Shown piece by piece: positions 359 to 61,771 of a stretch of DNA of 64,000 nt. Source of the DNA: Vicinamibacterales bacterium (GTDB lineage Bacteria; Acidobacteriota; Vicinamibacteria; Vicinamibacterales; UBA2999). Below the pieces are notes generated by a model, which did no database searches, was not told where the DNA came from, and saw only the letters and a list, made by a program, of their open reading frames with translations. The stretch spans positions 11,807-75,806 of the forward strand of contig JBFWVR010000009.1 in assembly GCA_050246635.1 (NCBI GenBank), written 5' to 3'. Position 1 is the first letter of the stretch; every line of letters begins with the position of its first letter. Position numbers and translations under genes: made by a program.

Positions 359-1408
359 ATGGCGAAGCACGGACGCTTCCCGGTGGTGACGCGGGTCCTC
401 GGGGCCCTGGTGGCAATCCTGACGCTTGGCGTCCCGATCCTGCCGTTCCAGGCTGCTCCGGAAGCCGCAGCCGCCACGGCCACGGCCGCCCAGAAGAAGA
501 AATCGTCCGCCGCCGCCGCCCGGGCGCGGCGGGCCCGCGCCGCTGCCGCGGCCCGCGCCCGCGCCCTGCGCGATGCGCAGACCCCGCGGTTCCGCGTGGA
601 CGAGACCGGGCGGGAAGTCCCGGATGTCCGCGCCGCGGCCGCCATCATCTACAACCCCGAGACCAACGAGGTGGTCTGGGAGTCGAACGCGATGGACCAG
701 CGTTCGATTGCCAGCATCACCAAGGTCATGACCGCGCTCGTGATTCTCGAGAGCGGGGCGGACCTGTCCGAGACGCACACCGTCGCGCGGAGTGACGTCT
801 CGCGCGCGTCCACGACCTACCTGCGCACCGGCTACAAGGTCACGGGAGAGGGCCTGCTGCACCTCATGCTGATCGGCTCCGACAACGCCGCGGCGCGCGC
901 CATCGCGCGCACGTCGCCCTACGGCGCGGCGGGCTTCATCGATCGCATGAACGCCAAGGCCGCGGAGCTCGGGCTCGAGAGCACGCACTACGCCGATCCC
1001 TCCGGCCTGCTGGCGGACAACGTCTCGTCGGCGTTCGACATGGCGCGGCTGATTGCCTACGCCGCGGCGGACGACCGGATTGGCAGCATCATGCGCACGC
1101 CGTCCGAGTCGGTGAACGTCGGTCGCCGGTCGGTGACCGTGCGCAGCACGAACCAGCTGGTGCGCAACGGCGACCTCGACGTGGTCGGTGGGAAGACGGG
1201 CTTCATCAGCCGGGCGGGTTACTGCCTCGCGACGCTGCTGCGCATCCCGGAGACCGGCCAGAAGCTGGCCGTCGTCGTGCTGGGCGCGCAGTCGAACGTG
1301 GGCCGCTTCTGGGAAGTGCGGCACCTCTTCAACTGGATGGCGACCCGCACCACCGCCGTGTTCGCCGGCGGCGCCGACGCCCAGCATCAGCAGCAGCAGC
1401 AGCAGTAG
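359..1408 (+). CDS. D-alanyl-D-alanine carboxypeptidase/endopeptidase (serine peptidase S11, low-MW penicillin-binding protein)
   Basis: 349-aa ORF with an N-terminal signal/anchor helix and the ordered motifs SxxK (SITK), SxN (SDN) and KTG. A GAGAGGG SD-like box precedes ATG 359. It also has an Ala/Arg-rich linker and a C-terminal poly-Gln tail. Confidence 0.85.
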   Translation: MAKHGRFPVVTRVLGALVAILTLGVPILPFQAAPEAAAATATAAQKKKSSAAAARARRARAAAAARARALRDAQTPRFRVDETGREVPDVRAAAAIIYNPETNEVVWESNAMDQRSIASITKVMTALVILESGADLSETHTVARSDVSRASTTYLRTGYKVTGEGLLHLMLIGSDNAAARAIARTSPYGAAGFIDRMNAKAAELGLESTHYADPSGLLADNVSSAFDMARLIAYAAADDRIGSIMRTPSESVNVGRRSVTVRSTNQLVRNGDLDVVGGKTGFISRAGYCLATLLRIPETGQKLAVVVLGAQSNVGRFWEVRHLFNWMATRTTAVFAGGADAQHQQQQQQ

Positions 1409-1433
1409 TGACGGGATGAGTAAGTAAGATGTA

Positions 1434-1544
1434 AGAAGGCAGAAGGCAGAAAAAAAAGGGGCGCTTGGCGTCCCTTTTCTCTTGTACCGCGGCGATGGCC
1501 CAGTCAGTCTTCTTCTGCCTTCTGCCTTCTGCCTTCTGCCTTCC
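1434..1544. repeat. inverted arrays of a 7-nt tandem repeat (AGAAGGC x2 / TTCTGCC x4) bracketing a terminator hairpin
   Basis: agaaggcagaaggcaga at 1434-1450 is the reverse complement of the ttctgcc units repeated four times at 1513-1540. The stretch is low-GC relative to its surroundings. Confidence 0.8.
1450..1480. terminator. bidirectional intrinsic terminator between convergent genes
   Basis: A8 run (1450-1457), 7-bp GC stem ggggcgc/gcgtccc (1458-1464 / 1468-1474, one G-U pair), 3-nt loop, then TTTTCT (1475-1480). This gives a U-tract on either strand. It sits between the PBP stop (1408) and the YbjQ stop (1555). Confidence 0.65.
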
Positions 1545-1554
1545 TCAGCGCCCG

Positions 1555-1872
1555 CTAGCCGAGCGTCACCGCGGTGCCGCTGGCGCTCACCATCAGCATC
1601 GAGCCCTGGCCGACGGTCTCGTAGTCGAGGTCGACGCCGATGACGGCGTTGGCGCCGAGCGCCTCGGCCTGTGCCACCATCTCCTCGAGCGCGATGTCCT
1701 TGGCCTTGCGCAGCTCCCGCTCGTAGGCAGCCGAGCGGCCGCCCACGATGTCGCGGATCCCGGCGAAGAGGTCCTTGAAGATGTTCGCGCCGAGGATTGC
1801 CTCGCCGCTGACGATGCCGTGGTACGTCGTGATGCGGCGGCCCTCGATGAGCGCCGTTGTCGTGATCAACAC
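1555..1872 (-). CDS. ybjQ: YbjQ family protein (UPF0145, putative heavy-metal-binding domain)
   Basis: The core [65 protein letters not shown]...VIGVDLDYE is the typical roughly 105-aa YbjQ pattern. I start at GTG 1872, because the track ORF extends to 1947 through the heptamer repeat. Confidence 0.8.
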
Positions 1873-1943
1873 GGGCTGCTGCCTCCTCTCATCCGCGCCG
1901 GTGCTTCGCCGCGCGAATCGTCCATCGTCGATCGGCGATCGCC

Positions 1944-1992
1944 TCAATCGTCAATCGTCAATCGTCAATCTGCAATCTTCAATCTTCATTCG
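1944..1992. repeat. tandem heptamer array (TCAATCN) x7
   Basis: The units read tcaatcg tcaatcg tcaatcg tcaatct gcaatct tcaatct tcattcg. The array overlaps the last codons and stop of the fdhE-like gene. Confidence 0.9.
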
Positions 1993-2815
1993 AAAACCCT
2001 CTCTGCATGACCGCCGCGTCGAGGGGCAGGGTCGCGATGGCATCGAGGGCCGGGAGGGCGGGCCGTCCGGCGTACCGGCTGTCGACCGTCTTGATGTAGT
2101 GCTGGCAGGTCTGGCACGCCGCGACGCGATACGTGCCATCGGCGGTCGCGAGGCTGGTGATGCGCTCGCGGTCGGCCTCCCCGCAGAACGGGCAGGCGAT
2201 GGGATCGGTGGCCCAGCTGGTCTGGCAGCGGGCGCAGATGAGGCGGCGCTGCCCCTGCGGGGTGATCTGCGCCAGATCGGGCGCGGCCCCGCAGACCGGG
2301 CACGTGCGAGCCGTCCAGCCGTCGAAGCTCACGCGCTGCTGCAGCACCTCGGCCGCGCGCGCCAGGAACGGCCGGAGGGCCCAGGTCAGGACCTCACCCA
2401 GCATCTCGGCACCGGCCGTGTCGTCCGGTTCGCCACGGAACCATCGGGCCGCGCGCGCCGGCAGATCGGGTTCGCGCCCGAGGTCGTGCAGCCGCGCCGC
2501 CTCGCGGGCTTCGATGGCGTCGTGGCGCTTGAGGATGTCGGTGACCTGGCGGAAGACGAGGCGGGCCTCGGTCCAGTCGACCGGCAGCGCCTCGAAATCG
2601 ATCAGGGCGCGTCCCGCGGCCAGCCGGGCGCGCAGCTTCTCGTCGGGCAGGTCAATCCAGGTGGTCTGGACCCGGCCCCGGACGCGGCGTTCGGCGGCCA
2701 CGAGATCGGCCTGGAGCGCCGCGGGGCCGGCGAGTTGCTCGTTCTGCTCGGCCAGCGCATGGAGCTCGGCCAGCTCGCGCGGCATGCCTCGGGTGTTCCG
2801 GGGAGGGGAGGACAT
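1979..2815 (-). CDS. fdhE: FdhE-like protein (formate dehydrogenase accessory/maturation family)
   Basis: Four CxxC pairs occur in FdhE order (CPVCG...CARCQ...CPFCG...CQTCQHY) after a helical N-domain. I start at ATG 2815 (MSSPPRNTRG), because the upstream 30 codons of the track ORF translate the heptamer repeat. Confidence 0.7.
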   Translation of the reverse strand: MSSPPRNTRGMPRELAELHALAEQNEQLAGPAALQADLVAAERRVRGRVQTTWIDLPDEKLRARLAAGRALIDFEALPVDWTEARLVFRQVTDILKRHDAIEAREAARLHDLGREPDLPARAARWFRGEPDDTAGAEMLGEVLTWALRPFLARAAEVLQQRVSFDGWTARTCPVCGAAPDLAQITPQGQRRLICARCQTSWATDPIACPFCGEADRERITSLATADGTYRVAACQTCQHYIKTVDSRYAGRPALPALDAIATLPLDAAVMQRGFSNED

Positions 2816-2822
2816 GGAAATC

Positions 2823-2987
2823 GATCTTAGATCGAAGATTGGAGATTGAAGATCGATTGCAGATTGAAGATTGCAGATTGCAGATTGGCGCGCGTCCATC
2901 GCCAATCCTCAATCCTCACTTCTCAATACATCTCGAATCCTCAATCTGAAACCTGCCATCAATCTTCAATCTTCAATCTTCAATCTC
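2823..2987. repeat. inverted pair of degenerate heptamer arrays (GATTGNA x~9, then TCAATCN x~12)
   Basis: 2823-2888 reads gatctta gatcgaa gattgga gattgaa gatcgat tgcagat tgaagat tgcagat tgcagat. A 13-nt GC centre follows. 2902-2987 reads ccaatcc tcaatcc ... ttcaatc ttcaatc ttcaatc. This is a low-GC island in the fdhE leader. Confidence 0.85.
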
Positions 2988-2993
2988 AAATGA

Positions 2994-3030
2994 CACAGGC
3001 CCCGCCTCCCGGGAGGAGACGGGGCCTGTG
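2994..3030 (-). terminator. terminator-like hairpin downstream of the TonB-dependent receptor gene
   Basis: Perfect 11-bp stem cacaggccccg (2994-3004) / cggggcctgtg (3020-3030), beginning 7 nt after the stop at 3037. On the reverse strand it is followed by TCATTTG, which is only a weak U-tract. Confidence 0.45.
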
Positions 3031-3036
3031 CCGGGG

Positions 3037-5748
3037 CTAGAAGCGGTAGACGGCGCCGATGCGCCAGCGCCGCGGGTTGGTGAGGCCCGTCGGGGTGAAA
3101 TAGCTGGACCCCGAGCGGGTCGTGCGTGACGTCACGGCCGCGGTGTTGGTCACGTTGAACGCCTCGAGGGTCAGCCCGAGGCGGCCCGTGTCGCTGATGC
3201 GGAACTGCTTCTCGAGCTTGAAGTCGAGGCGCGGCTCGGCGTCGTAGCGCTGGCTGCCGCGGGGCTCGATGAACAGGTCCTTGCGGTTCTGCGGCAGCGA
3301 GACCCGCACGGTGCGCGTGAAGGCGTTCCCGGTGGTGTAGAAGAACGCCCCCGAGGCCTGGATGTCCCAGGGCAGCGTGTAGACCCCGAGCAGCTTGACC
3401 AGGTGCGTGTTGTCGCGGGCCAGCGTGCCGTCGCGGAACGGCTGGAACCGCGGGTCCTGGTTCGGGTCGTCAAACTCGGTGGTGTTGCCGAAACTGCCGG
3501 TGTTGTCGATGTTGCCCTTGATCTTCGAGATGACCCAGGACAGGTCGAACATCCAGCGGTTCGCGTACCGGCGCTTCAGGTTGATGTCCACGCCCTTGTA
3601 TTCCCGGTAGGCGATCGACGGGTTCGTGATCAGGTACCGGTTCTCGAGCGCGTCGTTGTCCTGCGCGTAGGTGGTGATCGTCGTGCCTGTCTCGTCACCC
3701 GTGCCGGGCACGCCGTCCGGGCCCGGATCCGACAGCGGTTCCTCCGTGAAGACGCCGTTCTGCAGGACGTCGTCGATGAACTGGTCGTTCTTCCGGTAGA
3801 TGCCGGTGACGCCGAACGCCCAGCCAGGCGCGATCTCGTGATCGAAGCCCGCGATGAACTGCCGCATGCGCGGGTGCTTGAGCCCCGAGTCGAGCGTCGC
3901 CGCGGCGCCCGGCCGCGTGACGTACGGCTCGTAGAGCGGCTCGAGGGTCACCGGATCGATGTCGGCGTACATCACCGGGGCGATGTTCGGGCCGATCGGG
4001 TCGTAGTAGGTGGACTTGGCCCCATCGTAGTACAGCCCGTAGTGCGCCTTGATGACCGTCTTGCCCTCGCCCGTGAGGTCGAAGGCGAAGCCGATCCGCG
4101 GCGCGACGGGGTTGGTCTTGAAGACCGTCTGGTCCAGGTCCTGGTTGTGCCCGCGGTGCATGTCCACACGCACGCCCGGGTTGATCGTCAGCCGCCGGTT
4201 CACCTGCCACGAGTCCTGCGCGTAGACGGCGGTCCGGGTGTTGACGTTGTCCTTCAGGTACCCCTCGTAGAAGTAGGCGCCATAGGGCACGCCCGCGTCC
4301 GCGAAGATGTACATGTCGCCGGGGTAGCCGTACTCGCTCTTGACGTAGCTGCGCTCGAACTCGACCCCGAACTTGAAGTTGTGGTCGCCGGCGAAGCCCG
4401 ACGCGTAGTGCGTGACGGCCGCATTGGCCTGCGAGCGGCGGCGGTCGGCGTTGTAGTAGTAGTACGAGTTGACCGAGTAGAAGTCCTCGCTCACGTCGTA
4501 CCACCCCGGCGTGTTGTCCCCGCCGTAGGGCGTCAGGTAGTAGTACCCCCAGAAGCCCGAGTACTTCACGTCGAACACCGTCGTCGACGAGAGGATCTTC
4601 GTGTAGTTGACGTTCCACGAGAGCTCGGGGGAGTCCTGGTGCACGGTCGCGATCGGCGACACCGTGGCCCCGGCGCCGCGGCCGTCCACCGTGTAGCTGT
4701 CGATCTCGAAGAACCCGGTCAGCTTGTCGCTCGTGCCGAGCTGCAGGGTGGGCTTGAAGAGGAACCGCGGCGAGCTCTCGAGGCGGGCGCTCGGCGCGCC
4801 CGAGACCTCCACCTTCGGGAAGCCGGCCGGGGCCGTCTTCGGGCGGTAGTACTGGAAGCTCGTGAAGAACCAGGCCTTGTCCCGCTTGATCGGCCCGCCA
4901 ATCTGGAAGGTCGAGTCGGTGATGTAGTCGGTCTTCCCGGGCGTCAGATCCGGGTTCTCGTCGAGCAGCTCCGGCGTCGTGTTGTCGCCGGTCAGCGCGT
5001 CGTTCTCGAAGATCGTCTCGAAGAGCCCCGAGAACACGTTGCTGCCCGAGCGGAAGAGGCTGTTCGAGGCCACCCCCGTGAAGCCGCCGTACTCGGCGTC
5101 GGCGCCGAGCCCGATGACCTGCACTTCCTGGATCCAGTTGTGGTTCGCGAACACCCAGATGGTGCCGCCCTCGGGATCACTGACGTCCACGCCGTCGATC
5201 ATGTAGGCGTTGGACGAGGAGCCGCCGCTCCCGTAGGCCGTGTAGTTGTTCGGGTTCACCCCCGGCGCCAGGAGCATGGCTCCCGGACCGAACCGGTTGG
5301 TGAAGGGCACCATCTCCATGACTTCCTGGGAGAGGTTCTTCTGTTCCGCCGACGAGGACGTGTCCACGATCGGCGCCTCACCCGTCACCGTCACGCTCTC
5401 CTGGAGCGTGCCGATGTCGAGCACCGGGTTGAGCGTGATGGTCTGGCCGAGCTCCAGCCGGACGTTCTCCTGCAGGTAGGTCTTGAAGCCCTGCAGTTCC
5501 ACCTGGACACGATAGGCGCCCGGTGCGAGCGACGGGAAACGGTACCCGCCGTCAGCGCCCGTGATGGCAACCCGCGGGCCGCCAATGAGCGCCGGACTCG
5601 TGACCGTCACCGTGGCGCCGGGGATCGCCCCGCCGCTGGTGTCGGTGACCACGCCAATCAGCACGGCCGTCTGCCCGAGCTGGGCATACGAGGCGGCCGG
5701 CAGGGCCACGAGCATCGCCGCGAGCAGAAGGTACACCCTTCTTCGCAT
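3037..5748 (-). CDS. TonB-dependent receptor with N-terminal carboxypeptidase-regulatory-like domain
   Basis: 903 aa. Signal peptide MRRRVYLLLAAMLVALPAASYA, then GVVTDTSGGAIPGATVTV...GGYRFPSLAPGAYRV (CarboxypepD_reg-like). A long Tyr/Gly/Asn-rich beta-barrel ends in the terminal aromatic ...IGAVYRF. GGAGGAGG SD before ATG 5748. The track ORF (to 7875) is an artefactual extension. Confidence 0.85.
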   Translation of the reverse strand: MRRRVYLLLAAMLVALPAASYAQLGQTAVLIGVVTDTSGGAIPGATVTVTSPALIGGPRVAITGADGGYRFPSLAPGAYRVQVELQGFKTYLQENVRLELGQTITLNPVLDIGTLQESVTVTGEAPIVDTSSSAEQKNLSQEVMEMVPFTNRFGPGAMLLAPGVNPNNYTAYGSGGSSSNAYMIDGVDVSDPEGGTIWVFANHNWIQEVQVIGLGADAEYGGFTGVASNSLFRSGSNVFSGLFETIFENDALTGDNTTPELLDENPDLTPGKTDYITDSTFQIGGPIKRDKAWFFTSFQYYRPKTAPAGFPKVEVSGAPSARLESSPRFLFKPTLQLGTSDKLTGFFEIDSYTVDGRGAGATVSPIATVHQDSPELSWNVNYTKILSSTTVFDVKYSGFWGYYYLTPYGGDNTPGWYDVSEDFYSVNSYYYYNADRRRSQANAAVTHYASGFAGDHNFKFGVEFERSYVKSEYGYPGDMYIFADAGVPYGAYFYEGYLKDNVNTRTAVYAQDSWQVNRRLTINPGVRVDMHRGHNQDLDQTVFKTNPVAPRIGFAFDLTGEGKTVIKAHYGLYYDGAKSTYYDPIGPNIAPVMYADIDPVTLEPLYEPYVTRPGAAATLDSGLKHPRMRQFIAGFDHEIAPGWAFGVTGIYRKNDQFIDDVLQNGVFTEEPLSDPGPDGVPGTGDETGTTITTYAQDNDALENRYLITNPSIAYREYKGVDINLKRRYANRWMFDLSWVISKIKGNIDNTGSFGNTTEFDDPNQDPRFQPFRDGTLARDNTHLVKLLGVYTLPWDIQASGAFFYTTGNAFTRTVRVSLPQNRKDLFIEPRGSQRYDAEPRLDFKLEKQFRISDTGRLGLTLEAFNVTNTAAVTSRTTRSGSSYFTPTGLTNPRRWRIGAVYRF

Positions 5749-5970: not shown

Positions 5971-7959
5971 ATGCCGCCCCGTGCCCGTACGCTGCGCCTG
6001 CTGGCGGCCCTGGCGGCCTGTGCCTGGCCCCTGGGAGCGCTGACCTATACGGCGACCCCACCCAACATCCTGCTGGTCACGATCGATACCCTCCGGGCCG
6101 ACCGCGTGGGGGCGTACGGGGACGAGGACGCGGTCACCCCCACGCTCGACGGGCTGGCGGCCCGCGGGGTCCGGTTCGCCGATGCGGTCGCCCACGTGCC
6201 GCTGACGTTTCCTTCCCACGTGTCCCTGCTGACCAGCCGCTACCCGGGCGCCTTCGGCATCCGGTTGAACGGCGCGCCCGTGCTGCCGGCCCAGGCGGTC
6301 ACCGTGGCCGAGCGCCTGAAGGCGGCCGGCTACCGGACGGGCGCCTTCGTCGGCGCAGCCGTGCTCGACGCCGGCTACGGGCTCGACCAGGGGTTCGACG
6401 TCTACGACGATGACTTCGCGGCGCCGGCGGGCGATCAGGTGGCGTTGGCGGAACTGCAGCGGCCGGCGGGCGCCGTTGTCGCGCCGGCCCTCCGCTGGAT
6501 CCAGCAGGGGAGCGGCCCATGGTTCGCGTGGGTGCACCTTTACGATCCGCACCTGCCGTACGACGCCCCGGCGGACTGGCAGCGCAAGGTGCCGGGCCGG
6601 CTCTATGACGCGGAGGTCGCCTACGCGGATGCCATGGTGGGCCGCCTGCTGCAGGCCGTGCGCCTCGACGACACGTTCGTCGTCGTCACGAGCGATCACG
6701 GCGAGGCGCTGGGCGATCACGGCGAGCGGGACCACGGCTACTTCATCTACGACAGCACCCTGCACGTCCCGATGATCGCCGCCGGAGGCGGCCTCACGCC
6801 CCGGGTCGTCGACGAACAGGTGCGGATCGTCGACGTCGCACCGACCCTCCTGGCCCTCGCCGGGGCCGGGGCGCTCGACACCCCCGACGGCGAGAGTCTC
6901 GTGCCGCTGATGCGTGGCCAGGCGCGCCGCGACGTCCCGCCGTCGCTGGCCGAGAGCTGGTACCCGCGCCTCCATTTCGGCTGGAGTGAGTTGCGTGGCG
7001 TCCGCGTGGGCGAGTTCCTGTACATCGCGGCGCCCAGGCCCGAGCTCTACGACCTGCGCGTCGACCCCGCGCAGCAGAAGAACATCGTCGACACGCGCGC
7101 GGTGGTGGCATCGCGGCTCGCGGCCGAGCTCGCCACGCTCACGCGCCGCGAGCAGGGCACCGCGCGCCCGCCGGCCGCCGCGCCAGACCCCGAGACCGTC
7201 CGCCGCCTGCAGGCGCTCGGGTACGTCGGGACGCTGGCGCCGGTCACCGGTACGCCCGGCGAGGACCCGAAGGATCACCTCGATGACTACCTGGCGTACC
7301 GCGACCTGCTGAACCGCGCGCTCGGCCAGCTCGAACGCGGACGCGCGACCGCCGCGATTCCGCTTTTCCGCAAGCTGCTGGACTTGAATGTCCGCGCCTT
7401 CGAGGCGCACCTCTATCTCGGCAACGCCTACGCGGCGGCCGGCCAGCCCGACGCGGCACTCGGCGAGTACGCCGCGGCCCTGCAGCTGAACCCCGACGTG
7501 ACGCTGCCGCGGTTCGAGACGGCGAAGGTGCTGGCGATGCAGGGGGACATCGATGCCGCCGTGCGCGCCGCGCGTGAAGGACTGGCCCGCGAGCCCCGTT
7601 CGTTCTACGGCTGGTACACCCTCGGCGTGATCTACCAGCGGGCCGGCCGGCTGCGGGAGGCGGCCACGGCGCTGGCCACGGCCGTCGACGCCAATCCGCG
7701 TGAGCCGCGCGCCCGGGCCAACCTCGCCGAAGCGGCGCTGAAGTCCGGTGATCTCGCGATGGCCCGGCGTCAGTTCGAGGCCATGATCTCGCTTGGCCAC
7801 CGGCCGGCGCCCGCGCATTTCAACCTCGGGCTCATGGACCTGCGCGCCGGCGATCGCGCCGGCGCCGAGCGGCACTTCCGCGCCGCGCTGGCGGCCGACC
7901 CCACCTTCACGCCGGCGGCCGACGCCCTGAAGCGCCTCGAACCGGGGGGGCGCCGGTGA
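5971..7959 (+). CDS. sulfatase-like hydrolase/transferase (alkaline-phosphatase superfamily) fused to C-terminal TPR repeats
   Basis: Signal peptide, then NILLVTIDTLRADRVGAYG and SDHGEALGDHGE (sulfatase-fold metal and active-site blocks). The nucleophile position reads T-F-P-S-H (Thr79, codon 6205-6207) instead of C/S-x-P-x-R. The C-terminal roughly 250 aa are TPR-like (AxxxYxxAL...P). Confidence 0.8.
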   Translation: MPPRARTLRLLAALAACAWPLGALTYTATPPNILLVTIDTLRADRVGAYGDEDAVTPTLDGLAARGVRFADAVAHVPLTFPSHVSLLTSRYPGAFGIRLNGAPVLPAQAVTVAERLKAAGYRTGAFVGAAVLDAGYGLDQGFDVYDDDFAAPAGDQVALAELQRPAGAVVAPALRWIQQGSGPWFAWVHLYDPHLPYDAPADWQRKVPGRLYDAEVAYADAMVGRLLQAVRLDDTFVVVTSDHGEALGDHGERDHGYFIYDSTLHVPMIAAGGGLTPRVVDEQVRIVDVAPTLLALAGAGALDTPDGESLVPLMRGQARRDVPPSLAESWYPRLHFGWSELRGVRVGEFLYIAAPRPELYDLRVDPAQQKNIVDTRAVVASRLAAELATLTRREQGTARPPAAAPDPETVRRLQALGYVGTLAPVTGTPGEDPKDHLDDYLAYRDLLNRALGQLERGRATAAIPLFRKLLDLNVRAFEAHLYLGNAYAAAGQPDAALGEYAAALQLNPDVTLPRFETAKVLAMQGDIDAAVRAAREGLAREPRSFYGWYTLGVIYQRAGRLREAATALATAVDANPREPRARANLAEAALKSGDLAMARRQFEAMISLGHRPAPAHFNLGLMDLRAGDRAGAERHFRAALAADPTFTPAADALKRLEPGGRR

Positions 7960-10286
7960 CGAAGAAGGCGGCCGTCGGGACTGTCCTCGTGGCCCTGGCC
8001 TTGGCGGCGGGGGCCGGGGCCTGGTGGGCCTGGCGTCCGGCCGCGATCACCCTGGCCGGTGTCGAGATGGGCGCGTTGCCGCGCGGCGTCGCGCCCGCCG
8101 ACCTGAACGTGCTCGTGGTGACGCTCGACACGACCCGCGCGGACCGGCTGGGCGCCTACGGCGACACGTCCGGCGCGACGCCCACGCTCGACCGCCTCGC
8201 CGCCGACGGCGTGGTGTTCGAGCACGCTGTCTCACCCGCGCCGCTGACCCTGCCGGCGCACTCGACGCTCTTCACTGGCGAGGACCCGCCGTTCCACGGC
8301 GTGCGCGACAACGGCGGGTACATCCTCGACGGCTCGCGGCAGACGCTGGCCGAGACGCTCAAGGCGGGGGGCTGGGCCACCGGCGGGTTCATCGGCGCGT
8401 TCGTGCTCGACGCCAAGTTCGGCCTCGATCAGGGGTTCGACGAGTACGTCGACGAGTTCGACATCAACCAGCGTCCCGGGGAGGGCTTCGCGCTCGGGGA
8501 CATCGCCCGCCCGGCGGCCGAGGTCGTCGATCACGCGCTGCCGTGGCTCGAGGCGCACAAGGCCTCGCGCTTCTTCGCCTGGCTGCACTTCTATGATCCG
8601 CACTCGCCCTACGAGCCGCCCGAGCCGTTCCGCACGCGCTTCGCGTCACGGCCGTACCTCGGCGAGATTGCGTATGTCGATGCCCAGCTGGCGCGGGTGC
8701 TGGCCTGGCTCGACGCGCAGGGCCTGCGCGATCGCACGCTGGTCGTCGTGCTCGGCGACCACGGCGAGTCCCTCGGGGAGCACGGCGAGGGCACCCACGG
8801 CCTGTTCGTCTACGAGGGCACGCAGCACGTGCCGCTGATCGTGCGTGCGCCCTATGCGGGCCTGGCAGGCCGGCGCGTGCCGGCCATCGTGCGCACCGAG
8901 GACGTGATGCCGACGATCCTCACGCTCACCGGTCAGGCCGTGCCCAGCTCGGTGCGTGGTACCTCGCTCGTGCCGTTGATGACGGGGGCCGCCGCCGACC
9001 TCGAGCTCGACGCCTACAGCGAGTCGATCTATGCGCGGAACCACTTCGGGTGGTCGGAGCTGCGCGCGTTCCGCGAGGGCCGCTACAAGCTGATCGACGC
9101 GCCCCGGCCGGAGCTGTACGACCTCGAGCTCGATCCCGGCGAGACCACCAACATCTTCGAGGACCGCCAGGCCCTCGGCGATCGGCTCCGCCTGGAGATC
9201 CGCCGGCTCGATCGCGAGGCCGCGTCCGGTGCCCCGGCCGCCCCGGCCGCCATCGATCCGGAGACGCGCGAGCGCCTGGCGGCACTGGGGTACGTCGGGT
9301 CGTTCACCGACGTCGCGATCCCGGAGGGCGAGACCCGGGCCGATCCCAAGGACAAGATCGACGTCTTCAATCGCATGCTGCAGGCGCGGGAGGGCCGCGC
9401 CGGCGACCCCATCGCGGCGCTCGAGGCCATCGTCGCGGACGACCCGCAGATCGTCGACGCCTGGACGATGATCGGCAACGAGTACTTCCGGCGCCACGAG
9501 TACGCGAAGGCGGTGCCGTATTACCAGAAGGCGCTGGCGCTCAGCCCCGGGTACGATCTGGCGACCATCAACCTCGCCAACGCCTACCGCCGCCTCGGCA
9601 ACGAGCAGGCCGCGATGACCGGCTACGAGCAGTACCTCGCGCGCGATCCACGCAATGCCTACGTGCGGTACCAGCTCGGCGAGATCCAGTCCGACCTCGG
9701 CCGGCTCGGTGAAGCCGAGCAGACGTTCCTCACCGCGCTCGAGGCGGATCCCAGCCTCGCCTCGGCCCAGAACGCGCTGGGCGTCGTCCGCTTCAAGCAG
9801 GGACGCCTCCAGGAGGCGCGTGCCGACATCGAGCGCGCCCTCCAGATGAAGCCGGAGGTGCGCCTGGCGTACTACAACCTGGCGGTGCTGGCCGAAGCCG
9901 AGGGCCGGCCGGCGGAGGCTCGGGATCTCTACGCCCGTGAGCTCAGCCGGCATCCCGACAACTACCGCGCGCATTTCAACCTTGGCCGCCTCTTCGAGGC
10001 CGCCGGTGACCGCGCCGCGCAGGTCGAGGCGTGGAAGTCCGCCATCCGTGTCAATCCCGACTTCGCGGAGGGGCACATCCTCCTCGGCAAGCTCTACCTC
10101 GACCTCGGCCGCGACCTGGACGAGGCGCTCACGCTGGCGCGTCGTGGTGTCGAACTGGCCCCCCGCGGTCCGCTGGCCGCACTCGGCCACTACGTCGCGG
10201 CCGACGTGCTGAGCCGGCGGGGCCAGGCCGCCGCGGCCGCCGCCGAGGCGGCGAAAGGTCGCGCGATTGAGATGCGGGGCAGGTAA
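7956..10286 (+). CDS. sulfatase-like hydrolase/transferase fused to C-terminal TPR repeats (paralogue of the preceding gene)
   Basis: Same architecture as the preceding gene: VLVVTLDTTRADRLGAYG, T-L-P-A-H (Thr98, codon 8247-8249), GDHGESLGEHGE, and about 7 TPR units. The start GTG overlaps the upstream stop (GTGA), which suggests translational coupling. Confidence 0.8.
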   Translation: MTKKAAVGTVLVALALAAGAGAWWAWRPAAITLAGVEMGALPRGVAPADLNVLVVTLDTTRADRLGAYGDTSGATPTLDRLAADGVVFEHAVSPAPLTLPAHSTLFTGEDPPFHGVRDNGGYILDGSRQTLAETLKAGGWATGGFIGAFVLDAKFGLDQGFDEYVDEFDINQRPGEGFALGDIARPAAEVVDHALPWLEAHKASRFFAWLHFYDPHSPYEPPEPFRTRFASRPYLGEIAYVDAQLARVLAWLDAQGLRDRTLVVVLGDHGESLGEHGEGTHGLFVYEGTQHVPLIVRAPYAGLAGRRVPAIVRTEDVMPTILTLTGQAVPSSVRGTSLVPLMTGAAADLELDAYSESIYARNHFGWSELRAFREGRYKLIDAPRPELYDLELDPGETTNIFEDRQALGDRLRLEIRRLDREAASGAPAAPAAIDPETRERLAALGYVGSFTDVAIPEGETRADPKDKIDVFNRMLQAREGRAGDPIAALEAIVADDPQIVDAWTMIGNEYFRRHEYAKAVPYYQKALALSPGYDLATINLANAYRRLGNEQAAMTGYEQYLARDPRNAYVRYQLGEIQSDLGRLGEAEQTFLTALEADPSLASAQNALGVVRFKQGRLQEARADIERALQMKPEVRLAYYNLAVLAEAEGRPAEARDLYARELSRHPDNYRAHFNLGRLFEAAGDRAAQVEAWKSAIRVNPDFAEGHILLGKLYLDLGRDLDEALTLARRGVELAPRGPLAALGHYVAADVLSRRGQAAAAAAEAAKGRAIEMRGR

Positions 10287-10295
10287 TGTGGGGAT

Positions 10296-12116
10296 ATGAG
10301 TAAGAGCGGATCGAAGGACACGAAGGTTCCGAAGGACACGAAGGGCACGAAGGGCACGAAGGGCACGACGGACGCCAGGGCCACGAAGAGCTCGAGGGCC
10401 GCGAAAGCCGTGAAGGTCCCGGACGACGCGATGGCCCCGGCGGCGGTGCCGGGCAGCGAGGGCGCGGAGGCGGCTGATGGGCGTCCCGCGCGGACCCAGG
10501 CGCCCGCGCCGCCCGCGGCGACACCCACCGCGGCGAAGCGCGTGCGCAAGGCGGCGGCCCCGAAACCGGCGGGGGCGGCGAAGGCGCCGACGCGGCCCGT
10601 CGCGGGCCTGCGTGTGCTGATGATCGCGTCGGAGGTGCACCCGTTCTCGAAGACCGGCGGCCTCGCCGATGTCGCGGCCGCGCTGCCTGTCGCGCTCGGG
10701 CGGCTCGGGCACGCCGTGACGGTCGTCACGCCGCGTTACCGCGGCGTCGACGCCGGCACGGACGCGGGCGCGGTCTCGATTGCGATGGCGGGGTACAGCT
10801 TCGACGTCACGCTCTCGGAGGTGTCGCTCGGGCCGGGCGCCCGCGTGCTGCTGGCCGACTGCCCGCCGCTTTTCAACCGCCCCGGGCTCTACAACGAGCA
10901 CAACGTCGACTACGGCGACAACCCCCTGCGATTCGCGGTCCTGATCCAGGCCGCGCTGCGGTGGGCGGCGGCGCAGCCCGACAGGTTCGATGTCGTGCAC
11001 GCGCACGACTGGCAGGCGGGGCTCGCGCCCGCCTACCTGCAGGCGGCGGGGGCACAGGCGCCGCTGGCGGGGACGCCGTCGGTGTTCACGATCCACAACA
11101 TCGCCTACCAGGGCGTGGTGGACAAGGACTGGGTGCCGCGGCTCGGGCTCGACTGGGCCGGCTTCCGGGCGGTCGACGGCTTCGAGTTCTGGGATCGCCT
11201 CAGCCTGCTGAAGGCGGGTGTCAACTTCGCCGACGCGGTCACCACCGTCAGCCCCACCTACGCGCTGGAGATCCAGCGGCCGGAGTTCGGCTACGGGTTC
11301 GACGGCGTCGTGCGGGCGCGGGCCGATCGGCTGGTCGGCATCCTGAACGGCATCGACACCACGGCCTGGGATCCAGCCCACGATCCGTACCTCCCGGTCC
11401 CGTTCACCGCCGACGACCTCTCGGGCAAGGTCGCGGCGAAGCGCGCCCTGCTCGAGCGCTTCGGGTTGCCGACCGACGAGGCGAGTCTCGCCCGGCCCGT
11501 GGTGGGGCTGGTGTCACGACTCGTCGACCAGAAGGGGTTCGACCTCATCGACGCGGCCGCGTCCCGCCTGCTGGAGCTCGACGCCACCTACGTGCTGGTC
11601 GGGTCCGGCGACGCGCGGTACGAGGACCTCTGGCGGCGGCTGGCCGAATGGCGGCCCGACCGGGTCGGCGTGTTCATCGGCTTCGACGAAGCGCGGGCGC
11701 ATCTCGTCGAGGGCGGTGCCGATCTGTTCCTCATGCCGTCGCGCTACGAGCCGTGCGGCCTGAACCAGATGTACTCGCTGCGCTACGGCACGGTGCCCGT
11801 CGTCCGGGCCGTCGGGGGGCTCGTGGACTCGGTCCGTCCGTACGAGCCCCGCGCCGGGCAGGGCACCGGGTTCCTCTTCAGCGAGTACCATCCCGAGGCG
11901 CTGGTGGACGCGGTGACGCGCGCGCTGGCGGCGTGGCAGGACCCGAAGATCCGGCAGCGCCTCCGGAAGAACGGGATGCGGAAGGACTTCTCCTGGGACC
12001 GTTCGGCGGCCGAGTATGTCAAGGTGTATAAAAGGGTGATTGCCCAGCGGCGCCGCGGGCCGGCCGGGGCGGGAAACCGCCGCGCGCCCGCGGCATCCAA
12101 CGGTTCGAGGGACTAA
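10296..12116 (+). CDS. glgA: glycogen synthase (GT5) with a ~110-aa Lys/Ala/Pro-rich N-terminal extension
   Basis: The core from LRVLMIASEVHPFSKTGGLADV to PSRYEPCGLNQMY matches GlgA hallmarks. The N-terminal extension keeps G/C-rich third positions. The stop TAA overlaps the trxA ATG (TAATG). Confidence 0.85.
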   Translation: MSKSGSKDTKVPKDTKGTKGTKGTTDARATKSSRAAKAVKVPDDAMAPAAVPGSEGAEAADGRPARTQAPAPPAATPTAAKRVRKAAAPKPAGAAKAPTRPVAGLRVLMIASEVHPFSKTGGLADVAAALPVALGRLGHAVTVVTPRYRGVDAGTDAGAVSIAMAGYSFDVTLSEVSLGPGARVLLADCPPLFNRPGLYNEHNVDYGDNPLRFAVLIQAALRWAAAQPDRFDVVHAHDWQAGLAPAYLQAAGAQAPLAGTPSVFTIHNIAYQGVVDKDWVPRLGLDWAGFRAVDGFEFWDRLSLLKAGVNFADAVTTVSPTYALEIQRPEFGYGFDGVVRARADRLVGILNGIDTTAWDPAHDPYLPVPFTADDLSGKVAAKRALLERFGLPTDEASLARPVVGLVSRLVDQKGFDLIDAAASRLLELDATYVLVGSGDARYEDLWRRLAEWRPDRVGVFIGFDEARAHLVEGGADLFLMPSRYEPCGLNQMYSLRYGTVPVVRAVGGLVDSVRPYEPRAGQGTGFLFSEYHPEALVDAVTRALAAWQDPKIRQRLRKNGMRKDFSWDRSAAEYVKVYKRVIAQRRRGPAGAGNRRAPAASNGSRD

Positions 12117-14672: not shown

Positions 14673-14705
14673 GGTGCGTCCGGGCCGATTGGGGATGCCA
14701 CCACT

Positions 14706-14889
14706 GAGGCACGGAGACACGGAGGCACGGAGCCGGGGACTCCGCTCTCGGATTGAAGGCTGATGGTTGGAGACCGCACGAAGGACATCCGGGAAAGTCT
14801 CAGCCGTCGGTGTTGTGCTCCCCCTGCCGAAAATCTCACATCTGAACTCTGCGATCGGAACCCCACGGCTCCGTGCCTCCGTGTCTCCG
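14706..14889. repeat. 24-nt perfect inverted repeat made of RCACGGAG tandem units, arms 130 nt apart
   Basis: cggagacacggaggcacggagccg (14712-14735) is exactly the reverse complement of cggctccgtgcctccgtgtctccg (14866-14889). It lies in the 256-nt spacer between the cysteine desulfurase and mnmA. Confidence 0.85.
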
Positions 14890-25547: not shown

Positions 25548-25572
25548 CTACTCAGTCACGGGACGGGCCACT

Positions 25573-25626
25573 GATTGCACGGATTGCACAGATGGTGCGG
25601 ACGGTACGGATGGCGGCAACGGATGC
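25573..25626. repeat. degenerate 9-nt tandem repeat (GATNGNNCG) x6
   Basis: The units read gattgcacg gattgcaca gatggtgcg gacggtacg gatggcggc aacggatgc. The array lies in the spacer between the priming transferase stop and the UXS start. Related GATG-containing arrays occur at 29536-29889 and 56904-56927. Confidence 0.75.
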
Positions 25627-56878: not shown

Positions 56879-56903
56879 ACTCCCGGCCGACCGTGGCGGG
56901 CCA

Positions 56904-56927
56904 CGGATGGCACAGATGGCACAGATG
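56904..56927. repeat. 9-nt tandem repeat (CAGATGGCA-like) x~2.5
   Basis: The sequence cggatggca cagatggca cagatg lies in the 135-nt spacer between the first ATPase gene and the permease gene. It is related to the GATG arrays at 25573-25626 and 29536-29889. Confidence 0.7.
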
Positions 56928-61417: not shown

Positions 61418-61771
61418 GCCTCGCGCTGCGCGCTCGGTAGGCCTCGGCGGCTGCGCCGCCTCGTTGGGACTCGTCCCTCGCTTCGCTCGGGCTCGCTGGG
61501 ACTCGGCGCCTTCGGCGCCTCGCTGGGAGCCGGGCTCTCACTTCGCTTCCGCCGCGCCGCCGGCGCGGCGTCCCAGCGAGGCCGCGCAGCGGCCGAGTCC
61601 CAGCGACGTCCGATGCGAGGAACCCGCGAGGACGAGTCCCAGCGAGTCGCGTGAGCGACGAGTCCGAACGAGGCGGCGCAGCCGCCGAGGCCTACCGAGC
61701 GCAGCGAGGCCCAAAGAGGCGGCGAAGCCGGCGCGGCCCACCGAGCCCCGAGCGACGTCGAGGGCGAGGCC
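61418..61771. repeat. GC-rich long imperfect palindrome, copy 3 of the 3-member family
   Basis: 36-nt perfect inverted arms at 61430-61465 / 61667-61702 (core gctcggtaggcctcggcggctgcgccgcctcgtt). The match continues inward imperfectly through ctcgctgggactcg / cgagtcccagcgag words to a centre near 61550. It fills the spacer between convergent genes. Confidence 0.85.

Follow-up and report, generated by a model that had tools for sequence, protein, structure and literature searches.

Tandem heptamer arrays around an FdhE-like gene of a Vicinamibacterales bacterium as members of a genome-wide, strand-polar class of non-coding repeats

The stretch of DNA analysed here (the window, 64 kb, positions 11807-75806 of contig C9) comes from the genome of a Vicinamibacterales bacterium of the phylum Acidobacteriota (G000; 5.64 Mb in 57 contigs, 70.4% GC, 98.8% complete) and carries, around a gene for an FdhE-like protein, three arrays of a degenerate heptamer that reads TCAATCN on one strand and AGATTGN on the other. 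These arrays are an ordinary instance of a class of tandem repeats that is found throughout the genome and in some of its relatives. The original prediction, made from the letters of the window, had considered them a possible switch for the gene, working by changes in unit number or by inversion; we find no evidence of programmed switching of either kind and no sign of a gene switch at the locus. Probably, the arrays are local members of a lineage-wide set of non-coding repeats with units of 7, 8, 9 and 13 nt, often arranged as hairpin pairs or mosaics, which would serve as insulators or terminators at the level of RNA and take no part in switching.

The arrays of the locus and the class they belong to

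Degenerate TCAATCN/AGATTGN arrays are found at 1916-1992, 2823-2888 and 2902-2991, both in the sequence itself and with Tandem Repeats Finder (TRF), so that the repeats as first described are real. Together with the turn between the last two, they are arranged as follows.

1916-1992, minus strand: heptamer array reaching from the FdhE-like stop to the YbjQ start (TRF period 7, 10.7 copies, 80% match)
2823-2888, plus strand: hairpin arm adjoining the FdhE-like start, about 9 units of AGATTGN (the TRF call spans 2829-2887, about 8-9 units)
2889-2901, no strand: GC-rich hairpin turn of 13 nt, cgcgcgtccatcg, from sequence and fold
2902-2991, plus strand: second hairpin arm, about 12 units of TCAATCN (TRF 2903-2989, 12.4 copies, 68% match, 17% indels)

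The double-heptamer pattern TCAATCNTCAATC, with at most two mismatches allowed, has 21 matches within 1921-2985 and a single one in the rest of the window; shuffled sequence gives an expectation of 1.36 +/- 1.4 for the whole window, and none of 100 shuffles reaches 22. The array after the gene reads GATTGAN on the sense (minus) strand, and is thus purine-rich there; its units are clean at 1944-1992 (TCAATCG or TCAATCT) and degenerate, containing GATCG, at 1916-1943. As had been claimed, it overlaps the last codons of the FdhE-like gene (...AAT GAA GAT TGA in the sense direction), its second heptamer supplying the stop codon TGA at 1981-1979; TGA is present in all three frames across the array. 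In the arm 2902-2991 the middle units are badly degenerate, and four perfect TCAATCT units stand at 2959-2986. A coding reading of the arrays was rejected, because their period is not a multiple of 3 and stops occur in all three frames. The 100-nt bins of the arrays have a GC content of 0.41-0.51, with about 0.70 around them, and are low as had been stated; similarly low values are also found at 1401-1500 (0.52) and 201-300 (0.54), outside the three arrays.

Across the genome, counted with TRF at four or more copies unless stated otherwise, arrays occur 196 times with period 7, 201 times with period 8, 251 times with period 9 and 84 times with period 13, and only 3 and 5 times with periods 10 and 11; those of periods 3, 6 and 12 are coding. 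The mostly intergenic arrays of periods 7, 8, 9 and 13 number 615 and add up to 38 kb, or 6% of intergenic DNA (gene coordinates being taken from our own crude codon-usage caller, with 4571 genes and 89% coding). At least 15 unit families coexist, and the array modules are nested palindromic mosaics. Convergent spacers carry arrays in 25% of cases, tandem or divergent ones in 11-12%; at three or more copies these fractions are 44% for convergent, 23% for tandem and 15% for divergent spacers. The commonest heptamers, AAGATTG (54 arrays) and AATCTGC (43 arrays), are those of the family at the FdhE-like locus. This AGATTGN family forms 195 arrays of at least three units in 138 modules, 96% intergenic, and 31 of its arrays overlap a stop codon, as the one at 1979 does; the triple unit, (AGATTGN)x3, occurs 278 times. 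A meaning specific to the FdhE-like locus is not supported, since such arrays are ubiquitous, with about 615 of them in 11-25% of spacers; they are, however, strongly biased in position and orientation.

This orientation bias is best seen when the purine-rich strand of each array (A>T, G>C) is taken as reference. The nearest open reading frame (ORF) then lies on the 5' side in 382 arrays and on the 3' side in 118, at median distances of 29 and 125 nt, respectively; for AGATTGN arrays alone, the purine strand leads away from the nearest ORF in a ratio of 160:26. The rule holds for either end of the ORF, stop or start, and for any ORF orientation. In tandem spacers, 118 sense-purine arrays stand near a stop and 100 sense-pyrimidine arrays near a start, against 14 purine arrays near a start. 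Inverted pairs read purine array first and pyrimidine array second on both strands, by 38:5 in all families and by 36:1 in AGATTGN. Within 50 nt of an ORF end, 312 arrays stand at stops and 128 at starts, and the outward strand has the composition A 0.25, T 0.16, G 0.35, C 0.25.

All three arrays of the FdhE-like locus follow this rule. An inverted pair around the whole gene is present, as had been noticed (1956-1993 with 2853-2890, 38 nt, 87% complementary); however, given the rule, any gene with arrays on both sides will look as if bracketed by inverted arrays, and the bracket around the FdhE-like gene is thus a geometric by-product of array orientation.

The mosaics have borders of their own. 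Among 131 arrays of the 8-mer CACGGAGN, 65 have AATGC within 12 nt upstream (background 0.2%); they are followed by a junction similar to CTGCGGCTCCGATTTC (CTCCGAT) in 24 cases and by AGATTGN-like heptamers in 37. Examples lie at C1:355519, C2:187487 and C3:226292, and in the window at 14702-14732 and 14869-14889. The 13-nt unit ACCTCCGTGCCGC and its variants make up 84 arrays with a mean of 10.5 copies, 97% of them intergenic, and intergenic arrays of periods 10, 11 and 12 are almost absent. A 9-mer array of the same class, CGAAGGACA x8.6 (or period 18, x4.3), occupies 10312-10388 of the window, 26 nt past the sulfatase-TPR gene at 7956-10286.

The FdhE-like gene and the DNA on either side of it

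The features around the arrays are the following; the three genes next to them are all on the minus strand, and a DD-carboxypeptidase gene on the plus strand (359-1408) is convergent on the FdhE-like and YbjQ genes. Two sulfatase-TPR proteins are other neighbours of the locus.

1434-1543, no strand: second module, in the convergent spacer 1409-1554, an inverted pair of AGAAGGC x2.6 (1434-1451) and CTTCTGC x4.6 (1512-1543)
1555-1872, minus strand: YbjQ gene (PF01906), downstream; the Pfam match begins at residue 26 of the long ORF, and the start at 1872 is also called on a Logan contig
1979-2815, minus strand: FdhE-like coding sequence, 278 aa with four CxxC motifs (Pfam, TIGR01562, orthologs, NCBI product)
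2824-2829, minus strand: -10-like hexamer TAAGAT, 8 nt upstream of the ATG at 2815
2992-3032, minus strand: GC-rich stem-loop of 19 bp, from fold and inverted-repeat search, 4 nt past the stop of the receptor-like gene
3037-5736, minus strand: TonB-dependent-receptor-like gene, upstream (outer-membrane beta-barrel and CarboxypepD_reg in Pfam)

The FdhE-like protein contains four CxxC pairs (CPVC, CARC, CPFC and CQTC). It matches FdhE_central of Pfam with 28.6 bits (cut-off 27) and FdhE_C with 24.4 bits (below the cut-off of 27), and aligns over its full length to TIGR01562 with 51.6 bits, below the cut-off of 187.65; its homologs carry the name FdhE in the source databases. Judged by these scores it is a distant member of the FdhE family and not an equivalog, so that the label FdhE-like is fair. 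The start at 2815 holds, as ortholog alignments begin at residues 1-4 and the NCBI contig record gives a product of 278 aa. Of 41 relatives from the order, 38 have an ortholog, a distribution by which this is a conserved resident gene of housekeeping type, and in 16 of 16 orthologous loci (the window locus, L001-L004 and L015-L025) the gene is convergent with that for the DD-carboxypeptidase, sometimes with YbjQ between them. Among 5.8 billion proteins, the best match besides the protein itself is 63% identical; exact-protein look-ups returned one Logan contig only, identical, a 24-mer taken from the gene's 3' end gave no match when metagenomes were scanned with it, and no other strain of the species turned up in the collections searched.

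A -10-like hexamer (TACAAT, TATGAT, TAGAAT, TAAGAT, TATCAT or CACAAT) stands 6-9 nt before the ATG or GTG in all 16 loci, and in none of the 16 is there a Shine-Dalgarno sequence in the 6-9 nt between hexamer and start codon. Because the hexamer is conserved just before the start and no Shine-Dalgarno sequence follows it, the FdhE-like mRNA is probably leaderless. The conservation of this hexamer in the 16 orthologs also indicates that, in this little-studied order, genes without a leader are common. Among the genes of this genome with spacers of 40 nt or more, 13.5% have TANNNT at the -10-like offset, and 2% have it at a control offset. The YbjQ gene, in turn, is preceded by a Shine-Dalgarno sequence, GAGAGGAGG, at 1882-1890, and is probably co-transcribed with the FdhE-like gene in a two-gene transcript.

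Upstream of the FdhE-like gene, the long imperfect hairpin that had been proposed is present, with 2824-2885 pairing to 2930-2991 over 62 nt at 79% complementarity, and the 13-nt centre between its arms is GC-rich, as claimed. Folded as RNA, 2816-2992 reaches -78.0 kcal/mol in sense (z = -7.75) and -61.3 kcal/mol in antisense, and -40.3 kcal/mol as single-stranded DNA. On the sense strand the 5' arm is purine-rich and C-poor (A28 C3 G31 T28) and the 3' arm pyrimidine-rich and G-poor (A19 C20 G6 T21). Its proposed position in the fdhE leader, however, is not borne out, given the hexamer that precedes the start by 6-9 nt in every one of the 16 loci and the missing Shine-Dalgarno sequence: with a leaderless mRNA the hairpin (2823-2991) would lie upstream of the transcription start and outside any leader.

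The stem-loop at 2992-3032 resembles a terminator but lacks a T-run, and is missed by a scan for T-run terminators; that scan, which covered 1350-3150 and also looked for sigma-70 promoters, found no sites of either kind. The module in the convergent spacer encloses a bidirectional terminator of A-tract, stem and T-tract (1450-1483) and folds with -73.9 kcal/mol (z -6.2). Rfam gives no match near any gathering score at the locus, only sub-threshold matches to generic hairpins (miRNA precursors). Compared by BLAST with all other array spacers, the two spacers of the locus give two weak matches over the whole hairpin, at 77-80%; a mobile element was rejected as a reading of the locus, as its spacers match other array spacers mainly through the repeats, with no common flanks and no target duplications. 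Besides these arrays, a (CAG)8 run at 1382-1405 encodes the C-terminal poly-Q tail of the DD-carboxypeptidase, and the ortholog in the congener G001 also has a Q-rich end (L015, about 880-905).

Turnover of the arrays among relatives

The genome of the congener G001 encodes an FdhE-like protein 72% identical to that of the window, and 53 of the 54 window genes are matched at 74-96% in the region compared. After the FdhE-like stop, at the same spot, it has an array of similar length built from another unit (TGATTCT x9.7), and its convergent spacer holds an inverted AATCAAG/ATTCTTG pair around the terminator; the FdhE-like-to-YbjQ spacer and that between the DD-carboxypeptidase and YbjQ genes thus hold arrays in both genomes, with different units. 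Upstream of the gene, G001 has no array: the GC stem-loop is followed directly by the same -10 box. Over the syntenic 64 kb, arrays are shared by three spacers, whose units differ between the two genomes; four spacers hold them only in the window, five only in G001 and 20 in neither.

In other genera, the same spacers of the FdhE-like locus hold 9-mer arrays, arrays or pairs whose units are unrelated, or none at all; in one of them (G008) inverted heptamer pairs with very different units stand on either side of the ortholog, one of the pairs again around a terminator stem. The unit (AGATTGN)x3 is patchy in the order: 22 of 121 genomes carry it, and the 9 other genomes sampled from the same family all lack it. 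In samples of 40 kb, arrays are dense in some genera of the family and absent from five genomes of five other families of the order. The places of arrays and the architecture of their pairs tend to persist, and unit, length and presence change fast.

Two kinds of spacer show this at closer range. In three genomes (window 1409-1554, L015 905-1055 and L021 1391-1499), the A-tract side and the T-tract side of a bidirectional terminator stem are occupied precisely by an inverted heptamer pair, with different units in each; arrays may grow out of terminator flanks. Arrays of the 9-mers CACAGATTG and CACAGATGG, with 2.8-2.9 copies, lie at 25569-25593 and 56902-56927 of the window, and the syntenic spacers of G001 hold CACAGATGG x3.2 and CACGGATGG x5.0, so that in these cases the congeners have the same unit in different copy numbers. 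A longer unit, 46 nt x1.9 (83% match), lies at 61659-61746 in a convergent spacer of 354 nt; the orthologous spacer of G001 has about 61 nt.

What the arrays may do

In the reading that we consider probable, arrays would grow and shrink by replication slippage, and the complementarity of their arms would be kept either by selection on the hairpin or by templating within it. They would act mainly as RNA, forming long, register-tolerant stem-loops at the 3' ends of genes and between genes, which would stop or insulate transcription and protect 3' ends in the manner of REP/BIME hairpins. At the locus, the sense strand reads, in order, the stop of the receptor-like gene, the 19-bp GC stem-loop, the heptamer hairpin of about 165 nt, the -10 box and the FdhE-like start codon; the hairpin would thus be part of the 3' end of the upstream transcript as well as DNA upstream of the FdhE-like promoter, and could shield a leaderless gene from read-through. 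The array downstream would donate the stop codon of the FdhE-like gene and fill the spacer to YbjQ.

We infer an RNA-level role at 3' ends because of three observations: the three-fold preference of arrays for 3' ends, the paired architecture that outlasts the replacement of its units, and a modest bias of stability towards the sense strand. Of 43 pairs in tandem spacers, 26 fold more stably in sense and 16 more stably in antisense, with a mean advantage for sense of 2.9 kcal/mol (Wilcoxon p = 0.02); for the hairpin at the FdhE-like locus the advantage is 17 kcal/mol. Several observations weigh on the other side. The stability bias, modest at p = 0.02, was obtained in a single analysis; two crude, GC-confounded tests lend the role no help, as terminators of the stem-plus-T-run kind are just as scarce where a spacer has arrays as where it has none, and folding in the 70 nt distal to arrays is no stronger than in control spacers; hairpins at 3' ends do not account for the arrays in 15% of divergent spacers; and some 100 loci with a common unit and conserved non-repeat motifs are not explained by local slippage alone. 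These shared units and conserved non-repeat borders imply some copying between loci or a sequence-specific partner.

The arrays could also be a by-product without function, that is, neutral or mildly selfish DNA arising from slippage, hairpin-templated copying or another form of dispersal and tolerated in spacers, with an orientation rule that mirrors their origin (bidirectional terminators, with their A-rich and T-rich flanks, being one possible source) rather than any function. The fast turnover between congeners, the many orthologous spacers without arrays and the patchiness of AGATTGN across the order (22 of 121 genomes, none of nine in its own family) are as expected of such DNA, as are the lack of association with canonical terminators, the functionally unrelated neighbouring genes and the three spacers whose arrays lie precisely at the A-tract and the T-tract of a terminator stem. 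We nevertheless hold this to be rather unlikely: pair architecture persists at the same spacers despite the replacement of units, arrays are enriched three-fold at 3' ends, the G-U bias of the sense strand is present, though modest, and 6% of intergenic DNA is a heavy load for a compact genome that is 89% coding.

More speculatively, and with rather low probability, the arrays would be modules of a genome-specific, actively dispersing mosaic family similar to BIMEs (built of tandem 7-13-mers, lacking a RAYT, and with leader and junction motifs that are conserved) that acts as a polar barrier to transcription. A polymerase heading towards an ORF would transcribe the C-rich, G-poor version of an array, which would be a Rho-loading site or form the 3' arm in a zipper-like hairpin; the purine version would be transcribed by polymerases on their way out of the ORF. 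If true, this would account for the orientation rule regardless of gene direction, and such barriers would shield the many leaderless genes of the lineage, the FdhE-like gene among them, from read-through and antisense transcription.

It is doubtful that the arrays work at the level of DNA, as UP-like promoter sequences, binding arrays for nucleoid or regulatory proteins, or cruciform or curved DNA that tunes the FdhE-like promoter. The upstream array starts 1 nt upstream of the -10 box, arrays of other units abut the -10 box in two further orthologous loci (L018 and L021), a leaderless-type -10 is found in 23% of those genes whose start has an array no more than 30 nt upstream and in 13.5% of others, and a genome-specific repertoire of few units would suit a co-evolving binding protein. 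However, most arrays are at stops (312) rather than starts (128), the promoter scan of 1350-3150 found no sigma-70-like pair of -35 and -10, G001 has the same -10 box and no array, and the DNA hairpin has only -40 kcal/mol.

Least credible, to the point of being very improbable, is the contingency switch, in which the FdhE-like gene would be turned on and off by slipped strands that alter the number of units, or by the inverted arrays flipping 1993-2822: tandem 7-mers and an inverted pair of 38 nt do exist and unit number is not equal between species, but a single orientation relative to the DD-carboxypeptidase gene is found in 16 of 16 loci and in one independent Logan contig, no recombinase gene lies within about 8 kb (the sole serine-recombinase match of the genome, of the resolvase family, is on contig C11), and the longest exact inverted match between the flanking arrays is 20 nt. 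Each arm is better matched at other loci of the genome than by its supposed partner, the same arrangement is found wherever a gene has arrays on both sides, and the gene is of a conserved, housekeeping type. The Logan contig (run SRR27751816; 1252 nt, identical to window 2883-1632) has the same orientation and copy number, and ends within the upstream array, as assemblies do at repeats. Because the upstream array stops at the -10 box, units gained or lost would alter neither the sequence beside that box nor its distance from the ATG, and the body of the gene would stay in frame; in the array at 1916-1992 such a change would touch only the last 2-3 codons, which are not conserved, with TGA waiting in every frame. 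Inversion is thus not borne out, and of copy-number change there remains that heptamers alter in length and unit over evolutionary time, as the G001 array illustrates, with no effect on spacing or frame that could serve phase variation. The locus resembles the simple sequence repeats of contingency loci (Haemophilus, Neisseria) in its short tandem repeats, and invertible switches such as fimS and hin in the inverted repeats flanking a segment. Unlike the former, its tract lies neither within a reading frame nor between -35 and -10 in such a way that a change of units would matter; unlike the latter, it has no adjacent recombinase and no second orientation has been seen, and its arrays are not specific to the locus.

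Among known repeats, the closest in architecture are the heptamer arrays of Xanthomonas (GGGAATC) and Nostoc PCC 7120 (GGGGA(C/T)T), which are dispersed with a strong non-coding bias, have an ORF within about 50 nt on the 5' side of the G-rich strand whatever its orientation, and are fewer between divergent ORFs (Rehm et al., 2015, PLoS One, PMC4692102). In Xanthomonas they form 70-75 convergent inverted pairs per genome, as potential stem-loops, and between Xcc and Xac their places are conserved and their lengths and sequences variable; there is no tie to surface or contingency genes and no known function, and G-quadruplexes have been proposed as the explanation (PMC4692102). The arrays described here share the non-coding dispersal, the purine-strand rule, the deficit in divergent spacers, the convergent inverted pairs, and places that are kept while length and sequence vary. 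They differ in that units such as AGATTGA, AGATTGC and GATTGAC have no GG(G) run, so that the likeness is one of architecture and not of a G-quadruplex motif; in their unit lengths of 7, 8, 9 and 13 nt and at least 15 unit families; in the nesting of these families in palindromic mosaics with conserved non-repeat junctions; and in belonging to Acidobacteriota, with a genome-specific repertoire. For want of G-runs in the units, a G-quadruplex reading of the AGATTGN arrays was rejected. As these arrays obey the Xanthomonas and Nostoc rule without G-tracts, the rule is broader than the G-quadruplex idea, and a structural or transcriptional cause is indicated.

The STRR heptamer arrays of heterocystous cyanobacteria, reportedly described by Mazel and colleagues in 1990, are said to number about 100 or more per genome and to lie close to gene boundaries in non-coding DNA; we know of no established function for them and of no described inverted-pair rule or multi-period mosaics. 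Both they and the present arrays are tandem heptamers in non-coding DNA near gene boundaries, and they differ in unit sequence and phylum. Direct TAACTGA repeats form 169 intergenic sets in marine Beggiatoaceae and also occur in some Cyanobacteria and Bacteroidetes; their phylogenetic distribution is patchy with no evident mechanism of transfer, few canonical ribosome-binding sites occur in the repeat spacers, and arrays stand mostly a few nt upstream of start codons, being inverted in 1 of 170 (MacGregor, 2015, PMC4679880). The present arrays are similar in being abundant, intergenic and patchy, and dissimilar in standing mostly at stops and in forming many inverted pairs.

The best functional analogy is offered by the REP/BIME and REPIN elements of Enterobacteria and Pseudomonas, intergenic mosaics of alternating orientation that are biased to 3' ends, form hairpins, are transcribed and stabilise the upstream mRNA. 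REP units are single imperfect palindromes of about 35 nt, and REPINs depend on the RAYT (Y1) transposase; the units here differ, being tandem 7-13-mers. RAYT of the IS200/IS605 type (Y1, PF01797) has no match in this 98.8% complete genome, and control genomes do match; a RAYT transposase was accordingly rejected as the agent of dispersal.

A literature search returned no paper that couples Vicinamibacter with tandem repeats and none on such arrays in Acidobacteria. Relative to known heptamer arrays, what is new is the absence of G-quadruplex motifs, the multiple periods, the mosaic structure and the phylum; the positional rule is already known from Xanthomonas and Nostoc. For the FdhE-like locus itself the result is mostly deflationary. 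For the organism, it means that about 6% of the intergenic DNA of a high-GC soil acidobacterium consists of strand-polar, hairpin-forming tandem arrays, and the commonness of leaderless genes, where it holds, affects how spacers in this order should be interpreted.

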